DNA of 14,107 nt from Ignavibacteria bacterium (GCA_041694835.1 JBGFRZ010000051.1:1-14107), one strand, 5' to 3'. Counted from the first letter of the stretch, positions 4,672 through 14,107 are shown. A program made the numbers and translations. The notes: a model not told the origin generated them from the sequence alone.

Positions 4672-4962
4672 ATGAGTAATTATTTGGAAATATTAAGGCG
4701 GAAAATTACCGAATTATTTAAGGACGAAGACATACAAATATTTTTATTTGGTTCAAGAGCGCGCAACAACGCTTCAAATGTATCTGACATTGATATCGGA
4801 GTAATACCAAACACTGACTCGGCCAGAAAGAAACTCACGTTATTCAAGGGAAGCATAGAGGATTTGAATATACCTTATAAGATAGAGGTTGTAAATTTCA
4901 AGGAGGTCTCGCAAGAATTTAAGGAAGAAGCGCTCAAAAACAAGGTTGTATGGAAATACTAA
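4672..4962 (+). CDS. Minimal nucleotidyltransferase (MNT) antitoxin, MntA-like
   Basis: 96 aa with the GS-x10-DxD motif (LFGSRARNNASNVSDID). It overlaps the downstream HEPN gene by 13 nt. Confidence 0.9.
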   Translation: MSNYLEILRRKITELFKDEDIQIFLFGSRARNNASNVSDIDIGVIPNTDSARKKLTLFKGSIEDLNIPYKIEVVNFKEVSQEFKEEALKNKVVWKY

Positions 4963-5339
4963 AATTGCGATGCGACGATGCGCTCAAAGCGCTTGGCACA
5001 CTTGAAGAAATATTAAAAGAGCCGTATTCGGTTATAGTTCGCGATGCCGCCATACAAAGATTTGAATATACTTTCGAGGCATTGTGGAAATTTTTGAAAG
5101 AGTATCTGAAAGAGAAAGAAGGTGTTATATCCAATTCGCCGAAATCATGTTTTAGAGAGATTTTCTCGCTTGGTTTCATAACGGAAGATGAGACAATCGC
5201 GTATATGGAAATGACTGACACAAGGAATGAAACATCGCATACGTACAAGGAAGAAATGGCGAAAATAATTTATGATAAAATTGCTGGATATTTTACCTTG
5301 ATGAAAAATATTTTAGATAAAATAAAGGTAGAAAGATGA
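4950..5339 (+). CDS. HEPN-domain protein (HI0074 / nucleotidyltransferase substrate-binding family), putative RNase toxin
   Basis: 'RDAAIQRFEYTFEALWK', 'SPKSCFRE', and an intact Rx4HxY motif (RNETSHTY). It is paired with the MNT gene. Confidence 0.9.
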   Translation: MEILKLRCDDALKALGTLEEILKEPYSVIVRDAAIQRFEYTFEALWKFLKEYLKEKEGVISNSPKSCFREIFSLGFITEDETIAYMEMTDTRNETSHTYKEEMAKIIYDKIAGYFTLMKNILDKIKVER

Positions 5340-5548
5340 AAAAACGAAATATGAAAAAAATTTGGGCGAATGTATCGTCGTCATTTAATGAGTCTGAAAA
5401 ATTTGAAAAAAAGTATAATGCAAGTAAAACACCACGACAACTTTTGAGTGATATTCAGGTATGCAGAGAGCAGTATTATAAATTGAGAGGATGTCTTGAA
5501 GGTAGAAAAGGACTACGAAGAGTTTTTAAGATTGTTAAACAAACATAA
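5336..5548 (+). CDS. Small basic hypothetical protein, probable partner of the downstream nucleotidyltransferase
   Basis: ATGA overlap with the HEPN stop. The 'Y..SKTPRQLL..IQVCREQ' pattern resembles small ORFs found beside DUF6036-type NTases. The start could instead be ATG 5351. Confidence 0.6.
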   Translation: MKKRNMKKIWANVSSSFNESEKFEKKYNASKTPRQLLSDIQVCREQYYKLRGCLEGRKGLRRVFKIVKQT

Positions 5549-5936
5549 GGTCAAGTATTGCATAACCGGCTCTTTCGCCGTCGGTATTTATGGTTATGCG
5601 CGATATACAAAAGACATTGATATTTTAGTTGAGCCATCTGAGAAAAACGCTATAAGAATACTAAGAGCACTTAAAAATTTCGGATTTGGCGGAGTCGGAT
5701 TGAAGACGGGCGATTTTACAAAAAATGGAAATATAATTCAGTTGGGGTATGAACCCGTCAGAATAGACCTTATGACTGCAATAAGCGGTGCGGGTTTTAA
5801 TGAGGTTTGGAGAACGAAGAAAGAAATGTTTTTCGGTAAGACAAAAGCATTTTTCATAGGAAAGAAAGAATTGCTCAAAACAAAAAGAAAAACGGCACGA
5901 AAACAGGACTTGCTTGATATTTTGAAAATAAAATGA
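5496..5936 (+). CDS. Nucleotidyltransferase-fold protein (DUF6036-like)
   Basis: 'KYCITGSFAVGIYGYARYTKDIDILV' (G-x-x-A...G..R.T.DxD) and C-terminal 'K..TARKQDLLD'. TTG start with GAGAGGA about 5 nt upstream. Confidence 0.8.
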   Translation: MKVEKDYEEFLRLLNKHKVKYCITGSFAVGIYGYARYTKDIDILVEPSEKNAIRILRALKNFGFGGVGLKTGDFTKNGNIIQLGYEPVRIDLMTAISGAGFNEVWRTKKEMFFGKTKAFFIGKKELLKTKRKTARKQDLLDILKIK

Positions 5937-6997
5937 AAAAACTTACTAAATCAGTGATTAAGCAAATAGCGATTAAGCGATTAAGTGAAAAACACTATTT
6001 GCTATTTGCTATTCGCTATTTGCTATCCACTATTTGCTATTTGCTATTTACTACTTGCTATCTTTACGGCGCTTTTAAGGAAAACATCTGGACGGCTCGC
6101 ACTGCTGCGATGGGCGGGGCGTTTTCTGCCGTCTCCGATGATGTCTCGTCGACAATATTCAATCCCGCGGGACTCGCTCAGATTGAAAGAAACGAAGCCA
6201 ATTTTACCTACGCTCAGAAATTTTTGAATCTTCCCAATGTTCAAACGTCCAATATGAACGGTCTTTTTGGATATACAGTGCCGAAAATCGGAGCGTTCGG
6301 TCTGGGGTATCTCTCAAGCGGTGTATCTGATTTATACACAGAGCAATCCATTATTTTAACATACTCTGCGCCGCTTCATATCTTGCTCGGCGAAAAAACC
6401 GTGACCGTTGCCAGAAGAACAAAAGAATTTCCAATTTTACCCATTCCAATTTATGCGGGTTTAAATATAAAATATCTTTCTGTCGGATATAATCTGGACG
6501 AGAAAACTAAATTGAGGAGCGGCGGCGACCCTGTTTTTAAAGACGGGACTTCAAAAGGCGGAGTTGCGGTTGACATCGGATTTTTGGTTATGCCCCTTGA
6601 AAAACTCTCAGCGGCGCTTTCGGTGAAGAATCTTTTAACGCCAGATGTGGGACTTAAAATATCTGAAACTGTGCCTCTGGAGTTAACGCTCGGCGGTGGC
6701 TACAAGTTTGGGGATGCGGGAGTTTTTGAGGATTTGAAAGTTTCTTTGGATTTGTCGAACAGGATTCCGCAGGGCGCCTCTCCCGAGTTCAATTGGCGAT
6801 TTGGTGTAGAGTCATGGTTTAGCTATCACAGATATGCGGCGCGGCTCGGCCTCAACAATACCGAAATCGCTTTGGGCGGTGGAATAATTCAGAGCTTGGG
6901 TCATGTAGAGCTTCAGTTGGATTATTCATTTACCATGCCGATGCATCTTTCTGATAATTTTGGCTCTCACCGCCTCTCTTTGTCTACGCGTTTCTAA
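5933..6997 (+). CDS. PorV/PorQ/PorP-like outer-membrane beta-barrel (T9SS-associated, FadL-like superfamily)
   Basis: Signal peptide ending LYG/AF, then 'ARTAAMGGAFSAVSDD...FNPAGLAQ', alternating beta-strand patterns, and a C-terminal 'HRLSLSTRF' ending in Phe. Confidence 0.8.
   Translation: MKKLTKSVIKQIAIKRLSEKHYLLFAIRYLLSTICYLLFTTCYLYGAFKENIWTARTAAMGGAFSAVSDDVSSTIFNPAGLAQIERNEANFTYAQKFLNLPNVQTSNMNGLFGYTVPKIGAFGLGYLSSGVSDLYTEQSIILTYSAPLHILLGEKTVTVARRTKEFPILPIPIYAGLNIKYLSVGYNLDEKTKLRSGGDPVFKDGTSKGGVAVDIGFLVMPLEKLSAALSVKNLLTPDVGLKISETVPLELTLGGGYKFGDAGVFEDLKVSLDLSNRIPQGASPEFNWRFGVESWFSYHRYAARLGLNNTEIALGGGIIQSLGHVELQLDYSFTMPMHLSDNFGSHRLSLSTRF
5956..6064 (+). repeat. GATTAAGC 8-mer arm followed by ten CTATTTG-type heptamers inside the barrel's signal-peptide coding region
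   Basis: GATTAAG(C/T) at 5956, 5971 and 5979. Heptamers run 5995-6064. AGCAAATAGCGA (5961-5972) is the exact reverse complement of TCGCTATTTGCT (6013-6024). Confidence 0.9.
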
Positions 6998-7007
6998 CGG
7001 CTCTTCT

Positions 7008-7124
7008 CCAAATGTTGTTGTAACATTGGGTAAGGATTCTATGATGTGTAAAAACAAAGTATTTTCACTCATTCTCGTCCCGATAAATCGGGACTGCGAG
7101 GCAATCAAGTGTTCACACTTGATT
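7008..7124. repeat. Cluster of intergenic palindromes (REP-like or structured RNA)
   Basis: AATGTT/AACATT (7011-7027), GTCCCGAT-aa-ATCGGGAC (7077-7094), and AATCAAGTGT-tc-ACACTTGATT (7103-7124). Confidence 0.6.
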
Positions 7125-7208
7125 AAACCCGCTCAAACACTTTGTTTTTATACGCACAACAAAAAATGGAGAAGACACAATTTTACAAATGTGCAAATTT
7201 TGGAAATT

Positions 7209-7217
7209 TGATATAAT
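7209..7217 (+). promoter_or_regulatory. Extended -10 sigma70-type promoter element (TGnTATAAT) for the SpoVG-like gene
   Basis: TG-A-TATAAT at 7209-7217, about 45 nt upstream of ATG 7263, with RBS AAGGAGG at 7251-7257. Confidence 0.6.
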
Positions 7218-7262
7218 AAGTTAGGTCGCGTTCAGAAAAATCTCAAAATGAAGGAGGAAAAG

Positions 7263-7877
7263 ATGCGCAAATTTTTAAGTGCATTGGCAGTTTTGCTTGC
7301 CGCCAGTTTGTTTTCGTTTGCTCAGGTTAGCAAAGACATAGTTGTTACCGAAGTAGAAGTCGCCCCTGTCAGCGAAGGCGCCGTTAAGGGACTCGCCACG
7401 ATTGTGTTAAACAATGTTATTGAAATCAGCGAGATTCAGGTTTTGAAAGTCGGAGGAAGGACTTCCCTAAAATTTCCGGAGTACATCTCAAAAAAGGGTA
7501 AGGTCTATCCTCAGATAACTATCCACACGAAACAGGCCAACGACGCTATCGTAGAGGCTGTTGAGACGGGAATGCCGAGCGATGAAAAAGCGAAGGCGAT
7601 TTCATTCAAGGTGACGAAATTTTCAAGATTCACCAGGCCCTCGAAACTCAAAGTTTTTGCCGCGGTTATTTTCAACGATGCCGTGGAAGTGGAATGCAAG
7701 GTTATGGAAGGAAAAAGGGGGCCGTGGATTTCATGGCCGGCGAGAAAACCGGAAGAGGGCGGGAGATGGATACAGCAGGTAAAAATCAGGAACAAAGCCG
7801 TAAAAGACGCCATAGAAAAAACCCTTCTTGAGAGATACTCGAAGATGATTTCCGAGGGCGGCTCAGACGACGAATAA
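7263..7877 (+). CDS. Tandem SpoVG-like protein with an N-terminal Sec signal peptide
   Basis: Start moved to ATG 7263 because of the AAGGAGG RBS. 'MRKFLSALAVLLAASLFSFA/Q' is a signal peptide. Two SpoVG-like repeats follow: 'VKGLATIVLNN...IQVLKVGGRTSLKFPEY' and 'KLKVFAAVIFNDAVEVECKVMEGKRGPWISWPARK...AIEKTLLERY'. Confidence 0.75.
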   Translation: MRKFLSALAVLLAASLFSFAQVSKDIVVTEVEVAPVSEGAVKGLATIVLNNVIEISEIQVLKVGGRTSLKFPEYISKKGKVYPQITIHTKQANDAIVEAVETGMPSDEKAKAISFKVTKFSRFTRPSKLKVFAAVIFNDAVEVECKVMEGKRGPWISWPARKPEEGGRWIQQVKIRNKAVKDAIEKTLLERYSKMISEGGSDDE

Positions 7878-7982
7878 AACACACAAAAATATAGAGCACA
7901 AGCACAATTACAGAATAACGGAAGTTAATTGCCTCTTAATCTCTTTCCTGTTTTATTATCTTTTATCTTATGTAAATAAATT

Positions 7983-8012
7983 AAAAGCGGGGATAATCTC
8001 TCTGCTTTTTTT
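7983..8012 (+). terminator. Intrinsic terminator-like hairpin, possibly bidirectional
   Basis: AGCGGGGA (7986-7993) pairs with TCTCTGCT (7999-8006) using G-U pairs. It is preceded by an A-run and followed by a T7 run. Confidence 0.6.
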
Positions 8013-8020
8013 GTTATGAT

Positions 8021-8503
8021 ATGGATTACTATGAATTTTTTAAAAAGTTAAACGAAAAGAATGTCAAATATATCACAGTCGGCGGTCTTGCCGTAAATCT
8101 GCACGGTATACCACGTCTTACATACGACATAGACCTTATTGTTGAGATGAGCGATGAAAACATACAGGTTCTTATGAAATTATTGAACGAAATGGGATAT
8201 AAGCCAAAAATCCCCGTCAACATCTTGGATTTCGCAAATATGCAAAAAAGGAAAGAGTGGATTGAAAACAAAAATATGAAAGCATTTTGTCTTGTAAGCG
8301 ACAAGTTGGCCATAAGAGAGGTGGATATAGTCGTAAACACTCGGGTCAACTACGATTCTGCAAAAAAGAATGTCGTATTTTATGATTTGTATGACACAAA
8401 AATCGCGACTGTGGGCATCGACGACCTTATTAGAATGAAAAAAAACACAGGCAGAAAACAAGATGAAACGGATATAGAACATTTAAGAAGAATTAAAAAG
8501 TGA
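8021..8503 (+). CDS. Nucleotidyltransferase-fold protein (DUF6036-like), second copy
   Basis: 'KYITVGGLAVNLHGIPRLTYDIDLIV' and C-terminal 'DLIRMKKNTGRKQDETDIEHL'. Confidence 0.85.
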   Translation: MDYYEFFKKLNEKNVKYITVGGLAVNLHGIPRLTYDIDLIVEMSDENIQVLMKLLNEMGYKPKIPVNILDFANMQKRKEWIENKNMKAFCLVSDKLAIREVDIVVNTRVNYDSAKKNVVFYDLYDTKIATVGIDDLIRMKKNTGRKQDETDIEHLRRIKK

Positions 8504-8706
8504 AAAACTCGCATACGACAAAACCCGTTGAAAAAATCGAGGTCAAAGGCTTTTCTTATTATATTGGCGACGAAATGCTCAAAGAGTATAGTGCGCTCTC
8601 TGTGGAAAAAAAACTCGCGTGGCTACATTCCGCTAATGTATTTGAAAATGGATTAAGCGCGAAAGTCAGAATACTTCATGAGAAATTCAGAAAAGCGAAA
8701 ATGTAA
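8500..8706 (+). CDS. Small hypothetical protein coupled to the nucleotidyltransferase
   Basis: GTGA overlap with the upstream stop. 68 aa with the helical motif 'LKEYSALSVEKKLAWL'. Confidence 0.65.
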   Translation: MKNSHTTKPVEKIEVKGFSYYIGDEMLKEYSALSVEKKLAWLHSANVFENGLSAKVRILHEKFRKAKM

Positions 8707-9462
8707 TTGGGGACGGTCCTCAATTATCAGTATGGTTCTGTAAAATGTGGTAAAAAATGGGAAGATTAGCGAGATTTATTCCTGGAAATTCGTATTTTCA
8801 TGTTTTGTCACGCGGCAACAATCGGCAGAAAGTATTTTTTGACGTTTCAGATTATGAAAATTTCATAAAAATATTGGTGTTTTGCAAAGGACGTTTTTCA
8901 TGGCGCGTCATTCACTATGTATTGATGAGCAATCACTACCATCTGATTGTTTATAATGAAACGCCTAAAAATTTAAGTGACGGGGTAAAGATGTTGAATC
9001 AGAGTTATGTTAAATACTACCGAAAAAAATATCAGGGATGCGGACACCTTTGGCAAGATAGGTTCAAAAGTTTCGTGATAGAGGATGGCAGATATATCTT
9101 GGAATGCGGGAGGTATATAGAATTGAATCCCATCAATGCCGATATAATTGAACGTCCCGAAGATTACAAATATAGCAGTTATAGTTTTTACGCTTTTGGC
9201 AAGAAAAATTCGCTGATAGATTATAATCCGGAGTATTTGAGATTATCGGATGATTTTGAAAGAAGGCGGTTTATTTATCGTGAGTTTGTTCAAAATGGAT
9301 TAAAGGAAAGGCGTGGGATTGAGCGATATTTCCGGACAGGATTTTATGGCAGCGATGAGGGAAAAAGAAAATATGACACATTGGGATTGCGCTCCAGGAA
9401 TTTCAAGACAGGTCCCCGGTCACCAAGAAGCAGTAGTTGCCAATTGAGGACCGTCCCCAATT
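8705..9462 (+). mobile_element. RAYT-type element bounded by perfect 21-bp inverted repeats
   Basis: AATTGGGGACGGTCCTCAATT (8705-8725) and its exact reverse complement AATTGAGGACCGTCCCCAATT (9442-9462) enclose a Y1 HUH transposase. Each end is itself a near-perfect palindrome. Confidence 0.8.
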
Positions 9463-9467
9463 CCTGA
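8757..9467 (+). CDS. rayT: REP-associated tyrosine transposase (RAYT, Y1_Tnp/IS200-like HUH superfamily)
   Basis: 'YFHVLSRGNNRQKVF', HUH motif 'YVLMSNHYHL', 'HLWQDRFKS', catalytic Tyr region 'RYIELNP', and 'DYKYSSY'. Confidence 0.9.
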   Translation: MGRLARFIPGNSYFHVLSRGNNRQKVFFDVSDYENFIKILVFCKGRFSWRVIHYVLMSNHYHLIVYNETPKNLSDGVKMLNQSYVKYYRKKYQGCGHLWQDRFKSFVIEDGRYILECGRYIELNPINADIIERPEDYKYSSYSFYAFGKKNSLIDYNPEYLRLSDDFERRRFIYREFVQNGLKERRGIERYFRTGFYGSDEGKRKYDTLGLRSRNFKTGPRSPRSSSCQLRTVPNS

Positions 9468-9508
9468 CCAATTTCGCCAATTTCGATTAGAACCGTCGCA
9501 TTTTTTTT

Positions 9509-11068
9509 ATGAATTCTTTTGTAGTATCAATATTCGGTATCGCACTTACTCTGTTATTTTATTTCAGTGATTTGAGTGCGCAAGAGGTTTTATTAAGTGA
9601 GAATTTTGAGGGTGTTAGCGTCGGACAACTGCCTCCTGGATGGGCCAAATACGGCACAGGCAGTTTCGGCGTTGTCGACGCCGACCCGTCAAATCTCAAT
9701 AGAAAATCTCTGCGGATAAGCTCCAACACAATTTCCGACAAAACTTCGGTGTCCACAATTTACGTTTATTTCGTCATTCAGACGACGCCCGGCTACACTT
9801 ACAGTTTTTCATCGGATATTTACGATAATTCTGCCACCACATCCACTATTTCCATTTACTGGTATCCAACTGCGGACGGTTCGGGTTCCAATGTTGGCAT
9901 TGTAGAGAGCGATATGAGTGTCGACTCCGCAGTATCGTGGAGGAACCTGAATGTGAAAGACGATGCCCCATCCGGCGTCTATTCGGCAAAATTTCGCCTG
10001 AATTTCAAGGTCCCGCGGCCAGCTGGCGATTATTCTATTTTTTATGATAGTGTGACTGTGCTTGCCACTAAGGGTTTTATACCCGAAGATACAATCGGGT
10101 CACTTGACGCTATTATTACGGAAGTGGCGCCGTCTGAATCCCAGGACTGGATAGAATTTTTTGTGCTCGCGGATGGCAATACCTGCGGAATGAGAATCTA
10201 TGAAAACAAGGTGCCGGTTAAAAAACTGCAATGGCTGCCGAAGGGCTCTACTTATTATGTCGGAGCTGATGTTAAAAAAGGCGACTTCATTTTGCTTCGT
10301 TTTAACTCAAACGCTGATGATGAACGGAGTGTCAGGAACGGTGTAATAACTTTTCACACCACGGATTCCGGACTTACCGGCACGGACAACGTGGTGTCTC
10401 TGATGCGGAGCCCGACGAATTACGTCGATGTGTGCGCATATTCAAATTACGATGGTACCTTATCGGCTGACAATATACGAGAATTTGGCAATGCAATGAT
10501 TGCTGGCCTATGGATGCCTTCCATATCCACTGCCACGGCGACTAAATCAGAATTAGAAAATAACATGGTGGGTAAATGGACAGAAAAATCGGGGAGTGCC
10601 ATTGTAAGAAAAGTCAAAAATGTCGCGGGCAGCCGACTGCCTGTGCTCAATACCGATGTCGCCGCGTCTAAAGACGCTTGGGAAATAAAAACAACACAGA
10701 CGCCCGGCAGAGGATACACTTTTATCGAAATAGAACCCATTGCTCTAAAAATAAAAGGTCCAAATCCGTTTAACTCGCTCAAGCAGAAAGTTGAACTTAC
10801 TTTTAGCATAGGTGATAAAAGCATCAAAACCCTTCGGGTCTTTGACGTGAAAGGCAGGGAAATCAGACGTTTAATTGACCAGGACAAAAAATACGACGCT
10901 TCATCGCTTGGCGGCATAGGCGCCGATATAGTTTACTGGGACGGTAAGGATTCCGATGGCGACAGAGTCCCGACGGGAATATATATATTGCATCTTGAAG
11001 CGTATGATGCTACATCAGGTGAAACTTCTAAAACATTTGCAACAGTCGGGGTCTTCAGGGGAAAGTAA
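9509..11068 (+). CDS. Secreted CBM-like + lamin-tail-domain protein with a FlgD-Ig/T9SS-like C-terminal domain
   Basis: Signal peptide ending DLSA/Q; 'ENFE...PPGW...IFYDSV'; LTD 'IITEVAPSESQDWIEF'; C-terminal 'PNPFN...RVFDVKGREIRRL...YWDGKDSDGDRVPTGIYI'. Confidence 0.85.
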   Translation: MNSFVVSIFGIALTLLFYFSDLSAQEVLLSENFEGVSVGQLPPGWAKYGTGSFGVVDADPSNLNRKSLRISSNTISDKTSVSTIYVYFVIQTTPGYTYSFSSDIYDNSATTSTISIYWYPTADGSGSNVGIVESDMSVDSAVSWRNLNVKDDAPSGVYSAKFRLNFKVPRPAGDYSIFYDSVTVLATKGFIPEDTIGSLDAIITEVAPSESQDWIEFFVLADGNTCGMRIYENKVPVKKLQWLPKGSTYYVGADVKKGDFILLRFNSNADDERSVRNGVITFHTTDSGLTGTDNVVSLMRSPTNYVDVCAYSNYDGTLSADNIREFGNAMIAGLWMPSISTATATKSELENNMVGKWTEKSGSAIVRKVKNVAGSRLPVLNTDVAASKDAWEIKTTQTPGRGYTFIEIEPIALKIKGPNPFNSLKQKVELTFSIGDKSIKTLRVFDVKGREIRRLIDQDKKYDASSLGGIGADIVYWDGKDSDGDRVPTGIYILHLEAYDATSGETSKTFATVGVFRGK

Positions 11069-11072
11069 AAAT

Positions 11073-11253
11073 AGGTGAAGGTAAAGGTAGAGGTGGAAAG
11101 TTAAAAGCGAATAGTGAATTATGAATTCAGAATTATGAAAAACGACATTGGAAAACTTTTTTCATTCATCATTCATTATTCATTATTCAGCACCGCAAGG
11201 CGGTGCGGCTACTATTTGCTATTCGCTATTTGCTATTCGCTATTTGCTGTTCC
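11073..11253 (+). repeat. Nested repeat arms: (AGGTRR)x4, GAATT-type heptamers, inverted TTCATTA heptamers, a GC hairpin, and CTATT(T/C)G heptamers
   Basis: Hexamers 11073-11096; heptamers 11107-11141; TTCATCA/TTCATTA 11165-11192; GCACCGC-aag-GCGGTGC 11190-11206; five CTATT(T/C)G units 11212-11246. Confidence 0.85.
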
Positions 11254-12106
11254 CCGTCTATTCGCTCAGGCAAATATCAGCACCGGCATTGAAGTAATAG
11301 AGATCAATTTCGACGACGATATCGACGACGACGGCTTTGAATGGCTCAAACTACAAAACAGAACCGGCCGTTCCATAGATATTTCCGGATGGAGAGTCGT
11401 AGGAAAAACACTATCGCAAGCGCCCGGTTGGGGCGATATCAAAAACATCCCGCAAGGCGCTACCTTTGTTATTTCCGAGCCCGCTGTCGGTTTAAACAAT
11501 TTTGCCACAAGATATGGTTCATTTAAAAATACCAATAACTATCTTGCCATAGCCAGTGGTAATTTATCGCTCAGCAATACGGGCGGACGCATAACAATAT
11601 CATCGATGACATCGGGGGATATCCAGGATTTCAATTATTATCCCGTAGAAGAGAATTATTCCGTCGTGAAAATATCTTTTGACGCCGACGAAACATTGCG
11701 GTCTTCATGGAGAATTGGGACGCCTGGCGGGACGCCTTTTGAGGTTGGCGCTGTATCGACCGCCCCTGCTACGATTTTGCTTACCATTGACGAAAACACA
11801 AACCCGTTTAATCCCCATGTTTATCAATCTGTTGCCATTAACTTTGAATCGGATAGTTCCGCTGTGAAAAATTTGTATATAATTGATGTTACAGGAAAAG
11901 AAGTCGTGAGATTGGTTTCAAATGATATAACGTTTTATGGAGCTTCGCTTGCTGGTATAAATAAAGCCATACTATATTGGAACGGGAAAAATTTTGCCGG
12001 CGAGATAGTCCCCGTCGGTATTTATGTAGTGTGCTTTGAAACCGTCGATACGAACAAAAAAATCAACCGTCTTAAAAGGGTTGTTGTCGTCGGCAGACAA
12101 TTTTAA
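11114..12106 (+). CDS. Secreted lamin-tail-domain protein with a FlgD-Ig/T9SS-like C-terminal domain
   Basis: Repeat-encoded signal peptide ending RLFA/Q; LTD 'IEINFD...FEWLKLQN...IDISGWRV...LSNTGGRITI...GTPGG'; C-terminal 'TNPFNP...IIDVTGKEV...WNGKNFAGEIVPVGIY'. The start is GTG 11114 or ATG 11135. Confidence 0.8.
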   Translation: MNYEFRIMKNDIGKLFSFIIHYSLFSTARRCGYYLLFAICYSLFAVPRLFAQANISTGIEVIEINFDDDIDDDGFEWLKLQNRTGRSIDISGWRVVGKTLSQAPGWGDIKNIPQGATFVISEPAVGLNNFATRYGSFKNTNNYLAIASGNLSLSNTGGRITISSMTSGDIQDFNYYPVEENYSVVKISFDADETLRSSWRIGTPGGTPFEVGAVSTAPATILLTIDENTNPFNPHVYQSVAINFESDSSAVKNLYIIDVTGKEVVRLVSNDITFYGASLAGINKAILYWNGKNFAGEIVPVGIYVVCFETVDTNKKINRLKRVVVVGRQF

Positions 12107-12192
12107 CACACCCCCGCCCCCTCTTGATAGAGGGGAAAAAGACGCACTTGATATTGAATGTCAAATTCAACATAAATTTAGGGTGTGTTAAA
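12102..12192. repeat. 91-bp REPIN/MITE-like element with 12-bp terminal inverted repeats and an internal REP-like hairpin
   Basis: TTTAACACACCC (12102-12113) is the exact reverse complement of GGGTGTGTTAAA (12181-12192). Internal CCCCTCT-tgat-AGAGGGG at 12118-12135. Confidence 0.75.
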
Positions 12193-12204
12193 GAGGTTAA
12201 ATTT

Positions 12205-13998
12205 ATGAAAAAACTAATAATGCGCAAGAGCACAAGTGCACAAGAGCGCAAGGGACAAGACAATGCAGCAGAGCAGCAGAGCAGCAGAGCAGTGGCTCGT
12301 GGTTCGTGGTTCGTGGCTCGATTTCAACATCTCCCAGTCACCAGCCACCAGTCACCATCCACTATTTGCTATTCCCTACTGCCTATTGTCTATTGCCTAT
12401 TTTTAACTATTTCCTATTCCCTATTGCCTATTGCCTGTCTTTACGGTGCTTTCGAAGAAAAAATACCTTCCGCGAGAAACGCCGGTCTCTCAGGTGCAGC
12501 AGTTGCTTTGTCAAACGATTCCGATCTTATTTTTTACAACCCCGCATCGCTGGGGCAACTCCCCGGGGCGAGTTTTTCATTCTCTCATACATCGCTCTTT
12601 AATATATCCGATTTATCTTACATGGTTTTCACGGGGGCAGTTCCGACAAGAGCGCTTGGAAGTTTCGGTTTTGCGTATTCTCAGTTTGGTCCGGCAATTT
12701 ATAAAGAAACTGAGGTTGTCCTCTCGCACTCCTTTTCTTTGGGCAGAAAATTTCTTTTCGGCTATAACATAAAAAATCAGTCGGTGAATATTAAAAATTT
12801 CGGCTCGGCAAGCGGAATGGGTATAGATGTCGGCGTCTACAGCATCGTGCTCAATAATGTTGCGGCCGGATTTTCCGTCAAAAACTTAAACAACCCCACA
12901 CTTGGAGCGACGGCAGAAACGCTTCCGCAAAACTACAGAATCGGCATAACATATTTTCCCGAGTTGGGCATTGTTTTTCTTCTTGATATGAGCAAGGATA
13001 TTCTGGCGGATGAACTTTCATATCATGCCGGCGGAGAAATCAATATCACGAAAAACTTTATTTTCAGAGCGGGCACAAGAACAAATCCTGCCGGATTTTC
13101 TGCTGGTTTTGGCGTTGTTTTCAACGCTTTCAGATTAAACTACGCTATGCTCACTCACCCCGTCCTTGACGCTCAGCACTTCTTTACTCTCGGAGTGAGA
13201 TTCGGCCAGGAAGAAGTGGATGTGTCGCCCGGGCGTCGGCCGGGACGCCGCACAAGAAGAAGAACCGCCGACACAAGAGCGCGGGAAGACACCGACGAAG
13301 CGTTAAAGAGTTTGATAGTCAATATAAACACCGCTACGCTCGAAGAGTTAGACCAGATTCCCGGCGTCGGCGCTTTGACTGCCCAAAGAATTATTGACTA
13401 CCGTCAGGAAAGAGGACGGTTTGGCACAATCGAAGATCTGATGAATGTCCAGAGAATAACAAAAAAGACATTCGAAAAAATAAGGCCTTATATAACGGTT
13501 GAAGATGTAAAAAAGGCGCCGAAAGAGATTGCGCCACCTGAAGAAGTTGCACCGAAGCTCGTTCCGAAAGTTCCGGTTCAAAAGACAGAAGAGTTTCCCG
13601 ATGAACCCGAGGAAGAATCATCTGCCCCGGTTTTGCCTCCCGCTAAAGAAAAGAAAAAACCGCAGCCAATAAAAGTCGAGCCGGAAGTTGTTCCGGTTCT
13701 GGATGCTCCCGTTATTCCTGTTGTGCCCCCGGCACCTGCGCCAACGCCTTCAGCCGCGCCGGTCGGTGAAAAAGAAATTGAACCATCTCTCATCAGCGAT
13801 GACCGTTTGGATGTAAACTTAGCGACGGAGCAGGAGTTGGAAGTCGCTGGTTTTACATCTACTCAGGCAAAAAACATAATCAGATATAGAAAGAAGAGCG
13901 GAAATTTCACTTCCGTTGATAACCTGTTGAAAGTGCCCGGGGTTGACGCAAGAACGGTTGAAAGAGTGAGGGAATTGATAAAAGCAAATAGCAAATAG
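12205..13998 (+). CDS. comEA: PorV-like outer-membrane barrel fused to two ComEA-type helix-hairpin-helix DNA-binding domains
   Basis: Start moved to ATG 12205 (AAGAGG upstream) because the ORF-track start lies inside a palindromic element. 'SARNAGLSGAAVAL...YNPASL' is the barrel N-motif. HhH domains are 'VNINTATLEELDQIPGVGALTAQRIIDYRQERGRF' and 'LDVNLATEQEL...AKNIIRYRKKSGNFTSVDNLLKVPGV', separated by a Pro/Glu/Lys-rich linker. The symbol refers to the ComEA domains only. Confidence 0.8.
   Translation: MKKLIMRKSTSAQERKGQDNAAEQQSSRAVARGSWFVARFQHLPVTSHQSPSTICYSLLPIVYCLFLTISYSLLPIACLYGAFEEKIPSARNAGLSGAAVALSNDSDLIFYNPASLGQLPGASFSFSHTSLFNISDLSYMVFTGAVPTRALGSFGFAYSQFGPAIYKETEVVLSHSFSLGRKFLFGYNIKNQSVNIKNFGSASGMGIDVGVYSIVLNNVAAGFSVKNLNNPTLGATAETLPQNYRIGITYFPELGIVFLLDMSKDILADELSYHAGGEINITKNFIFRAGTRTNPAGFSAGFGVVFNAFRLNYAMLTHPVLDAQHFFTLGVRFGQEEVDVSPGRRPGRRTRRRTADTRAREDTDEALKSLIVNINTATLEELDQIPGVGALTAQRIIDYRQERGRFGTIEDLMNVQRITKKTFEKIRPYITVEDVKKAPKEIAPPEEVAPKLVPKVPVQKTEEFPDEPEEESSAPVLPPAKEKKKPQPIKVEPEVVPVLDAPVIPVVPPAPAPTPSAAPVGEKEIEPSLISDDRLDVNLATEQELEVAGFTSTQAKNIIRYRKKSGNFTSVDNLLKVPGVDARTVERVRELIKANSK
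12222..12441 (+). repeat. Mosaic of five tandem-repeat types within the N-terminal coding region
   Basis: GCRCAAGN x4 (12222-12253), GCAGCAGA x3 (12265-12288), GTGGYTC x4 (12292-12319), CCAKYCA x4 (12334-12361), and about 11 CTATTNN-type units (12362-12441). Confidence 0.9.
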
Positions 13999-14012
13999 CG
14001 AATAGCAAATAG
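13984..14012 (+). repeat. (GCRAATA)x4 heptamer arm, the reverse complement of the CTATTTG arrays
   Basis: gcaaata gcaaata gcgaata gcaaata g spans the ComEA-fusion stop codon and ends just before the next ATG. Confidence 0.9.
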
Positions 14013-14013
14013 T

Positions 14014-14107
14014 ATGAGGCCGCATAAAAATCTTAAAATTTGGGAAAAAGTGATGTTGATGATAGAAGAAATTTATCAGCACACTGGCGGTTTTCCGAGA
14101 GAAGAAG
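14014..14107 (+). CDS. Four-helix-bundle protein (23S rRNA intervening-sequence protein / Avd-like family), 3'-truncated
   Basis: Not in the ORF track. ATG 14014 gives MRPHKNLKIWEKVMLMIEEIYQHTGGFPREE, which matches the family N-terminus 'x(H/F)xxLxVWQKAMxLxxEIYxxTxxFPxEE'. Confidence 0.8.
   Translation, partial: MRPHKNLKIWEKVMLMIEEIYQHTGGFPREE

Follow-up and report, generated by a model that had tools for sequence, protein, structure and literature searches.

Seven-base tandem repeats that are probably translated as signal peptides of envelope proteins in an Ignavibacteria genome

Introduction

The sequences considered here are tandem arrays of the heptamer CTATTTG and its variants, which lie at the 5' ends of exported protein genes in a 14,107-base stretch of DNA (hereafter the window) from an Ignavibacteria bacterium (GCA_041694835.1); their closest described counterpart is found in the opa genes of Neisseria. 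According to the accessible part of PMC5354566, opa genes carry CTCTT pentamer repeats inside the region coding for the leader peptide and undergo on/off switching. The likeness, as far as that account goes, is that a repeat with a non-triplet unit lies in the signal-peptide coding region of an outer-membrane protein and gives hydrophobic residues in each frame. However, opa tracts are there described as homogeneous, hypermutable, confined to one gene family and acting as switches, whereas the arrays reported here are degenerate, spread genome-wide in both orientations, associated with many unrelated proteins and without sign of switching. Judged as opa-type tracts, they have the non-triplet unit upstream of the functional part of the gene but lack the long homogeneous tract.

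Heptanucleotide repeats form a second point of comparison, the STRR heptamers of cyanobacteria being one such repeat family. Long simple-sequence repeats of 5-11 bases, heptanucleotides included, are credited to Mrazek et al. (2007) in the available portion of PMC4679880, which itself describes intergenic TAACTGA repeats of Beggiatoaceae, cyanobacteria and Bacteroidetes that lie upstream of start codons and are candidate regulator sites; in the same portion of that text, the term "signal peptide" has no occurrence. Our arrays resemble the heptanucleotide repeats thus summarised in being abundant, mostly intergenic, often close to start codons and lineage-specific, and with tandem units far above chance and mainly between genes they fall within the long simple-sequence or STRR-like class. 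They differ from the TAACTGA repeats, as far as these are portrayed in that source, in that they are apparently read through as protein and in that their orientation sorts with the class of the downstream gene.

In the intervening sequences of 23S rRNA, an S23p (PF05635) gene is located between complementary stem arms. Our genome likewise holds PF05635 genes between complementary arms able to form a long stem, but here the cassettes lie between protein genes, the arms are tandem 7- or 8-base words, and the 5' arm provides the stop of the upstream gene while the 3' arm appears to be translated as the leader of the downstream one through an ATGA overlap. Rickettsia palindromic elements, as well as repeats of the miniature inverted-repeat transposable element and repetitive extragenic palindromic (REP) types, insert in frame into genes, the Rickettsia elements adding surface loops to varied proteins. 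The repeats of our genome share with them a dispersed, palindromic nature that is tolerated in coding sequence and becomes protein; the difference is that the preferred coding site here is the signal peptide, so that the element would supply a putative targeting module. Finally, Borg tandem repeats create intrinsically disordered protein regions (PMC9879509, accessible part). In what that part describes, fast-arising tandem repeats are also taken into open reading frames (ORFs) under selection on composition; they yield disordered internal regions, whereas we describe what seem to be cleavable targeting peptides. Literature searches on heptamer or tandem repeats combined with signal peptides and on Rickettsia palindromic elements, which covered articles without their supplements, returned no paper on array-encoded signal peptides.

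Results

An earlier note on the window, written from the sequence alone, had pointed to three arrays over the hydrophobic (h) regions of signal peptides. All three were recovered with Tandem Repeats Finder (TRF) and with a separate scan of our own for CTATT-type arrays, and the peptides quoted in the note match the reading frames exactly. Array 1 is CTATTTG in 9.6 copies with 80% matches (5995-6061 by TRF, 5995-6064 by our scan); array 2 is CTATTCG/CTATTTG in 5.9 copies (11212-11252 by TRF, 11212-11253 by our scan), or 2.9 copies with 96% matches if taken as a 14-mer; array 3 is CTATTGC in 9.3 copies (12369-12436 by TRF, 12362-12434 by our scan). The longest run of identical units in them is 2, 1 and 2, respectively. 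Translation bears out the further statement that (CTATTTG)3 gives a stop-free LFAICYL; the reverse complement of this sequence contains TAG. More generally, the CTATTYG strand is open in all three frames, where it codes for Leu, Phe, Ala, Ile, Cys and Tyr, and the opposite strand of these arrays has TAG or TGA in every frame. Three consecutive CTATTYG units are found at 76 places in the genome and at 0 in each of the 30 relatives searched, and the reversed (non-complemented) pattern has 0 occurrences; the three-array observation is thus confirmed and far above chance. Inside all three leaders, further arrays precede the heptamer array on its 5' side: GATTAAGC in the first, TGAATTA and TCATTCA in the second, and CAAGAGCA, GCAGCAGA, GTGGCTC and CCAGYCA in the third.

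The window is the whole of one contig (C41) of a 1.9 Mb genome (G000) that comprises 89 contigs at 42.5% G+C. Its DnaK finds its closest records at 70-76% identity, and eight of the ten best rows are named Elusimicrobia or Endomicrobiaceae. Two sister genomes of the same family (G001 and G002) served for close comparison, and the relatives searched bring the total to 31 genomes, G000 counted. Gene starts were called with our own coding-potential caller, whose predicted genes cover 79% of G000.

Leader 1 (5933..6070, plus strand, as for all features below given with two dots) has 46 codons, reads MKKLTKSVIKQIAIKRLSEK followed by HYLLFAIRYLLSTICYLLFTTCYLYG, and ends directly before AFKENIW, invariant alignment columns starting at A47. 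It heads a mature PorV/PorQ-like outer-membrane barrel (6071..6997; NF033709, E 5.3e-17, 62.4 bits). Its hydrophobic core is the CTATTTG array, 10 units in the unit listing (5995..6064), and its Lys/Arg-rich n-region is encoded by a GATTAAGC/CAAATAG-like array (5956..5985) that acts as a 5' arm: in the predicted RNA hairpin, the CAAATAG/GATTAAGC arm pairs with the CTATTTG arm around a 5-base loop at -31 kcal/mol (z -3.1). The leader has a net charge of +7 ahead of an 18-residue uncharged run, with L at -3 and G at -1 (LYG|AF). Just upstream, the TGA of a 146-aa ORF (5496..5936; weak nucleotidyltransferase-like Pfam match) visibly overlaps the ATG of gene 1 as ATGA.

Homologues of the mature part of gene 1 were found in 24 of the 31 genomes, at 61% identity in G001 and G002. 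The G001 orthologue begins with an ordinary leader, MKRMFSATIAVTAALGIIFSAAAPSRA|AFKENIW, and so does that of G002, MKILKKILLLLFLLLPIAYPLYP|AFKENIW, which holds four CTAYTGC/CTATCCC units. In an alignment of gene 1 with six database homologues (A2), M1 is the sole invariant column before A47, and invariant columns follow from A47 on; one homologue (P0007, 56-58% identical) has both MKKLT and LYG|AFKENIW in common with gene 1 but a leader of 27 residues. Genes 1 and 3 score 62.4 and 66.6 bits against NF033709 (E 5e-17 and 3e-18), under its curated cut-off of 90, and a PDB sequence search with alignment A2 yielded PorV at E 0.51, one unrelated chain at E 0.21 and nothing else, an unusable result; we therefore name both PorV-like and not members of the family.

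Leader 2 (11135..11266; 44 codons) consists of MKNDIGKLFSFIIHYSLFSTARR and CGYYLLFAICYSLFAVPRLFA and is followed by QANIS, with L at -3 and A at -1 (LFA|Q) and a net charge of +3 ahead of a 17-residue uncharged run. Its start codon, ATG 11135, lies inside the first of two arrays, TGAATTA and TCATTCA, which form complementary arms (11115..11189; hairpin z -3.95), and its hydrophobic core is the six-unit CTATTTG/CTATTCG array (11212..11253). The mature product (11267..12106) is a lamin-tail-domain surface protein (PF00932 LTD, E 2e-6) with a C-terminal sorting-type domain, the C-terminus being similar to those of p519 homologues. Leader 3 (12205..12447) is the longest, with 81 codons from an ATG preceded by a GAGG box through CLYG, then AFEEKIP, as defined from the sequence and the orthologues. 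Arrays in the order CAAGAGCA, GCAGCAGA, GTGGCTC and CCAGYCA (12225..12362), found in the same order elsewhere in G000, code for its polar, Arg-bearing part, and a CTATTNN array of about 11 units with a 3-base break (12362..12441) for its hydrophobic core; the net charge is +6 ahead of a 42-residue uncharged run, with L at -3 and G at -1 (LYG|AF). GTGGCTC pairs with CCAGYCA in an inner hairpin that stands out, and the fold of the whole composite does not differ significantly from shuffles (z -1.4). The mature part (12448..13998) is a PorV/PorQ-like barrel fused to two ComEA-type helix-hairpin-helix domains (PorV_fam E 2.9e-18; HHH_3 E 2e-38). Its orthologues in the sister genomes read ...GTLRA|AFEEKIP and ...LALRA|AFEDKIP in a conserved gene order. 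A MAFFT alignment of the leader DNA placed the starts of both orthologues over the arrays and is uninformative on start-codon homology; the GAGGTT-spacer-ATGAA contexts of gene 3 and its orthologues are alike, by eye only.

The comparison of orthologues proposed in the earlier note gave the anticipated picture: mature AFKENIW and AFEEKIP are kept, the N-termini differ, and the slot occupied by the arrays is filled in G001 and G002 by ordinary signal peptides of 23-27 residues. Since conservation in the orthologues of genes 1 and 3 starts at the first residue past the array, there is no room for another export signal. The ancestral start and cleavage region look as if they had been retained, with the arrays lying between them. 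All three leaders show the traits of Sec/signal peptidase I substrates: a charged n-region, an uncharged h-region of at least about 10 residues and the residues at -3 and -1. Over 12 residues, their Kyte-Doolittle mean peaks at 1.8-2.5, the conventional leader of a G001 orthologue reaching 2.3. The purine-rich or antisense arm codes for the polar, Lys/Arg-bearing half of the leader and the pyrimidine-rich arm for the hydrophobic half. Two more exported proteins of the window, at 7248 and 9509, have ordinary array-free leaders. Taken together, we consider it probable that the arrays are translated as signal peptides.

TRF finds 800 period-7 and 403 period-8 arrays in the 1.9 Mb of G000, with 181 heptamer motifs; 768 of these 1203 arrays are intergenic (720 between tandem, 29 between divergent and 19 between convergent genes). 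The 150 CTATT-type arrays merge into 125 loci, of which 44 lie upstream of a same-strand gene, 15 within the first 300 nt of one and 8 deep in genes or at contig edges. The remaining 58 are antisense and adjoin the 3' end of a gene, 38 of them at -27 to +47 nt of the stop and 14 overlapping it. Intergenic composites follow the order CAAGAGCA, CAGAGGA, GTGGCTC, CCAGYCA, CTATTYG and then the gene, and the exact reverse complement is seen after stop codons, the two types of intergenic region (A and B) being mutually reverse-complementary. One leader composite has a 234-nt, 90%-identical copy elsewhere in G000, in antisense, so the composites are dispersed repeats and not merely products of local slippage.

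CTATT-type arrays also occur in frame deep inside long ORFs, namely a radical-SAM protein on contig C10, a 704-aa ORF on C9 and a 5422-aa surface protein on C77. From position 7433 of C81 onward, 11.4 copies of an antisense octamer, TCTTGTGC (reading CALVLL...), make up the hydrophobic leader ahead of an outer-membrane protein; a word can therefore serve on either strand, provided that its reading there is hydrophobic and free of stops. In G002, 7.1 copies of GCAATAG (L015, 5794-5843) lie directly past the stop codon of the gene orthologous to that for the 1527-aa surface protein of the window, and the syntenic 12 kb of G001 have zero period-7/8 arrays, so arrays come and go between close relatives.

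The reading frame upstream of sense arrays is strongly asymmetric. We collected 57 ORFs in which a sense array is followed by 100 or more open codons and dropped three in which the array lies more than 450 nt inside the ORF. At the 54 loci thus retained, an ATG is present upstream in the gene's frame at 45, against 7 and 8 in the two other frames (Fisher p 3e-18); at 40 loci the gene's frame stays open farthest upstream (binomial p 1.4e-9), and the median open stretch is 172 nt in this frame versus 78 and 81 nt. As pure arrays are open in every frame, this asymmetry means that the junctions and variant units avoid stops only in the frame of the gene. The interpretation in the earlier note is upheld in large part, but its "frame-independent" signal-peptide generator holds for peptide composition only and fails for expression, which needs an in-frame ATG. 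The other frames rarely hold a start, and a change in length by a single unit would disrupt the gene. At antisense loci, an ATG in any of the three frames is found in 28 of 58 cases. Twelve sense arrays are closed by a stop before the ATG of the next gene, and most of these genes appear by eye to be cytoplasmic. The arrays are thus not specific to export, 58 of 125 loci being antisense and untranslatable and 12 sense arrays being closed by a stop.

The scan for (CTATTYG)n suggested in the earlier note shows that sense arrays with an in-frame ATG favour envelope genes. We scanned the mature parts of the 45 genes concerned, and 26 match envelope-type Pfam families, a class defined at E <= 1e-3 that includes many matches under the gathering score. 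They comprise FadL, TraF_2, UPF0164, PorV and PorP barrels, OmpA, LTD, fn3 and LysM, as well as the CHU_C, FlgD_ig and Por_Secre_tail sorting domains (C-terminal domains of the type IX secretion system, T9SS), SBP_bac_1, LptE, SLT, CBM48 and ComEA-type HhH. Five others belong to different families (HEAT, TPR/HEAT, a metallo-beta-lactamase, a FliG fusion, and a radical-SAM protein in which the array is an internal insert), and 14 are without a Pfam match. At the nine sense loci without such an ATG, we found two cytoplasmic enzymes with their own ATG after the array (an aldehyde dehydrogenase and GalT) and seven short ORFs without a family. As a control we took the genes behind an antisense composite, 40 of 41 being scanned (C9:9578-11353 was left out): four are of envelope type, 35 are cytoplasmic or inner-membrane housekeeping genes, such as those for DnaK, DnaJ, ribosomal L6 and S8, V-ATPase A, D and E, MetK (SAM synthetase), PriA and RadA, and one has no match. 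The enrichment, 26/45 versus 4/40, gives a Fisher p of 3.5e-6, and 2.6e-10 if only Pfam-matched genes are counted (26/31 versus 4/39). Among the 14 PorV-like paralogues of G000, 13 contain one or more period-7/8 arrays in the in-frame stretch that precedes the barrel, two of them with only 2.2-2.7 copies, and one, on C17, has no array and a conventional-looking leader.

The view in the earlier note that the repeat is an arm of a cassette system is borne out, since CAAATAG (5') and CTATTYG (3') are complementary arms that bracket S23p/PF05635 genes. G000 has 15 PF05635 matches, 12 of them full length; at eight of these, arrays begin within 25 nt of the first in-frame stop of the ORF, and a ninth, on C6, has an array at an ATGA junction. 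Four S23p copies begin with (CGAATAG/CAAATAG)n-ATG. One is the right end of the window, where the antisense heptamer (CAAATAG/CGAATAG)n contributes to gene 3 its TAG stop and the four codons before it and also forms the 5' arm of the cassette (13983..14012), followed by the start of an S23p gene cut by the contig end (14014..14107); bases 14015-14107 show 100% identity to C6:3779-3871, where the 5' part of a PF05635 match lies. At the 3' end of four copies there is an ATGA stop/start overlap, after which come MRKPFT and (CTATTCG)n; the leader thus encoded is shared by a ComEA-like protein, an S8 protease carrying a T9SS domain and two PorV-like barrels. In other S23p subfamilies the arms are AGAGCACA and TCTTGTGC. 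In these subfamilies, the 3' arm is fused in frame when the next gene encodes an outer-membrane protein, and its frame stops after about 17-20 codons when that gene is cytoplasmic. The three leaders of the window have no adjoining S23p gene, the window containing no more of one than its 5' arm and its first 93 bases. In three relatives of genus g4 (L009, L010 and L011), an S23p-like ORF runs stop-free into the heptamer leader (CTATCAC/CTACCTG units) of the gene 1 homologue; the layout in which a cassette arm serves as leader therefore recurs in other genera of the class.

Several other features of the window were noted. A REP/RAYT system was considered as the driver of the arrays and rejected, the RAYT-like gene being flanked by a different, rare palindrome and not by heptamer arrays. 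This gene (8757-9467; 236 aa) matches NF047646 at E 3e-17 and 62.7 bits, against a cut-off of 80, and the inverted GGGGACGGTCCTC-type palindromes on its sides, at 8709-8727 and 9444-9465, have 3+1 exact copies in G000. Nucleotidyltransferase/HEPN-type pairs are present at 4672-5339 (MNT plus NTase_sub_bind/HepT-like) and 8021-8503 (DUF6036 nucleotidyltransferase), with small ORFs beside them (4672-5936 and 8021-8706 overall); they separate genes that are adjacent in both sister genomes and look like inserted cassettes of the toxin-antitoxin type. SpoVG-domain proteins are normally cytoplasmic. The 209-aa SpoVG-domain protein of the window (7248-7877) begins with a conventional-looking signal peptide, MKEEKMRKFLSALAVLLAASLFSFA|QVSKD, as does its G001 orthologue, and may be exported.

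Discussion

We propose that the arrays belong to dispersed composite repeats of tandem 7- or 8-base units, situated at gene junctions in both orientations. These composites often make up a pair of arms that are imperfectly complementary and that bracket an S23p gene in some copies. A sense composite that comes to lie in an envelope protein gene, after the start codon and before the signal-peptidase site, would be translated, the n-region being drawn from the 5' arm, the h-region from the CTATTYG arm, and the native c-region, (C)LY[GA], being retained. Antisense copies terminate the upstream gene and remain untranslated, and this is the orientation found ahead of cytoplasmic genes. The signal peptide was probably the segment invaded because it is the sole coding segment whose function rests on composition and not on sequence.

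Several points weigh against this reading. The anatomy, orientation and frames of the arrays, the contrast in gene class and the orthologue comparison are observed; the initiation of ribosomes at the upstream ATG, the engagement of Sec and the cleavage before AF or Q are steps that we infer, and the descriptors we used (charge, uncharged run, Kyte-Doolittle mean, residues at -3 and -1) are crude. With 44-81 residues, the leaders are unusually long, they have a high content of Tyr and Cys, the hydrophobic stretch of leader 1 contains an Arg, and L at -3 is permissive rather than typical for signal peptidase I. Our coding-potential caller starts genes 1 and 3 downstream of the arrays; these starts cut conserved mature residues, and repeats have atypical codon statistics. 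As for the genome-wide figures, many assignments to the envelope class fall under the gathering score and 14 of the 45 genes are unmatched, the 54 sense loci are non-independent, including four near-identical S23p-linked leaders and several paralogues on C62, and G000 is a metagenome-assembled genome in 89 contigs.

The alternative that fares best, which we nevertheless regard as rather unlikely, is that the array is translated from an internal GTG (in GTGGCTC) or TTG (in CTATTTG), the long polar arrays being a 5' untranslated region. Any array of at least three GTGGCTC or CTATTTG units does offer a GTG or TTG in every frame, leaders that reach 80 residues are uncommon, and GTG 12292 would yield a more ordinary 52-residue leader 3, MARGSWFVARF... 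However, an in-frame upstream ATG at 45 of 54 loci and a frame that is open across the composite are unexpected for an untranslated region, and genes 1, 2, C62:1481, C62:11589 and C6:2487 have short MKK/MKR n-regions right before the array.

Selection of the arrays as phase-variation switches, slippage by one 7-base unit toggling surface proteins, is architecturally possible: the unit is not a multiple of three, it lies within the leader-coding region of outer-membrane and surface genes, and the other frames rarely have a start. We consider such a main role unlikely in view of the degeneracy of the arrays: identical units run to one or two in 128 of the 150 CTATT arrays and to five at most. 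Moreover, identical arrays stand untranslated in antisense positions, and none of the 12 unjoined sense arrays resembles the OFF allele of an exported gene.

That the arrays are non-coding leader or terminator elements, with true starts downstream and open frames as a mere by-product of stop-free repeats, seems to us very improbable. It would agree with the absence of stops from all sense frames whatever the role of the repeats, with the clearly untranslated state of about half of the copies and with the downstream starts favoured by the coding-potential model. Against it stand the onset of orthologue conservation right after the array, which leaves no space for another signal peptide, the excess of in-frame ATGs together with the enrichment in envelope genes, and the fact that before cytoplasmic genes either a stop closes the array frame or an ATG of the gene's own follows the array. 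We give almost no credence to an assembly artefact in which arrays were misjoined to the 5' ends of genes: the genome is in 89 contigs, and C6, C79, C87 and the end of the window begin or end in S23p copies next to arrays, but the arrays measure 20-100 bases, well under read length, lie in the interior of contigs in frame with flanking genes, vary among copies, and have counterparts in G002, where the orthologous leader contains a 4-unit array and the orthologous upstream gene is followed by an antisense one.

Speculatively, and with considerable doubt on our part, an S23p cassette with its arms, or an empty hairpin, could be a portable junction module, whose 5' arm would stop the upstream protein, whose 3' arm would give the downstream one an export signal through ATGA coupling, and whose stem would tie expression of the exported gene to RNA folding or processing. 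Four unrelated mature proteins on one leader are evidence for such a module, and rRNA intervening sequences, which are processed by RNase III, offer an analogy for the arm stems. If it were true, simple repeat DNA would keep new signal peptides constantly at hand and could relocate proteins to the envelope.

Conclusion

In this genome, dozens of envelope proteins appear to be exported by leaders made of 7-base words, and sister species use ordinary leaders on the same proteins. This would be a natural, genome-scale case of how little sequence information a signal peptide needs, and would offer a concrete route for the birth or replacement of targeting sequences from non-coding repeat DNA, linked to the enigmatic and widespread S23p four-helix-bundle cassette. 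Gene callers and signal-peptide predictors are likely to mis-start or misclassify such genes, so that estimates of the secretome may be biased in uncultured lineages of this kind. Should slippage of the arrays occur as well, it would make them a new reservoir of phase-variable surface genes outside pathogens.

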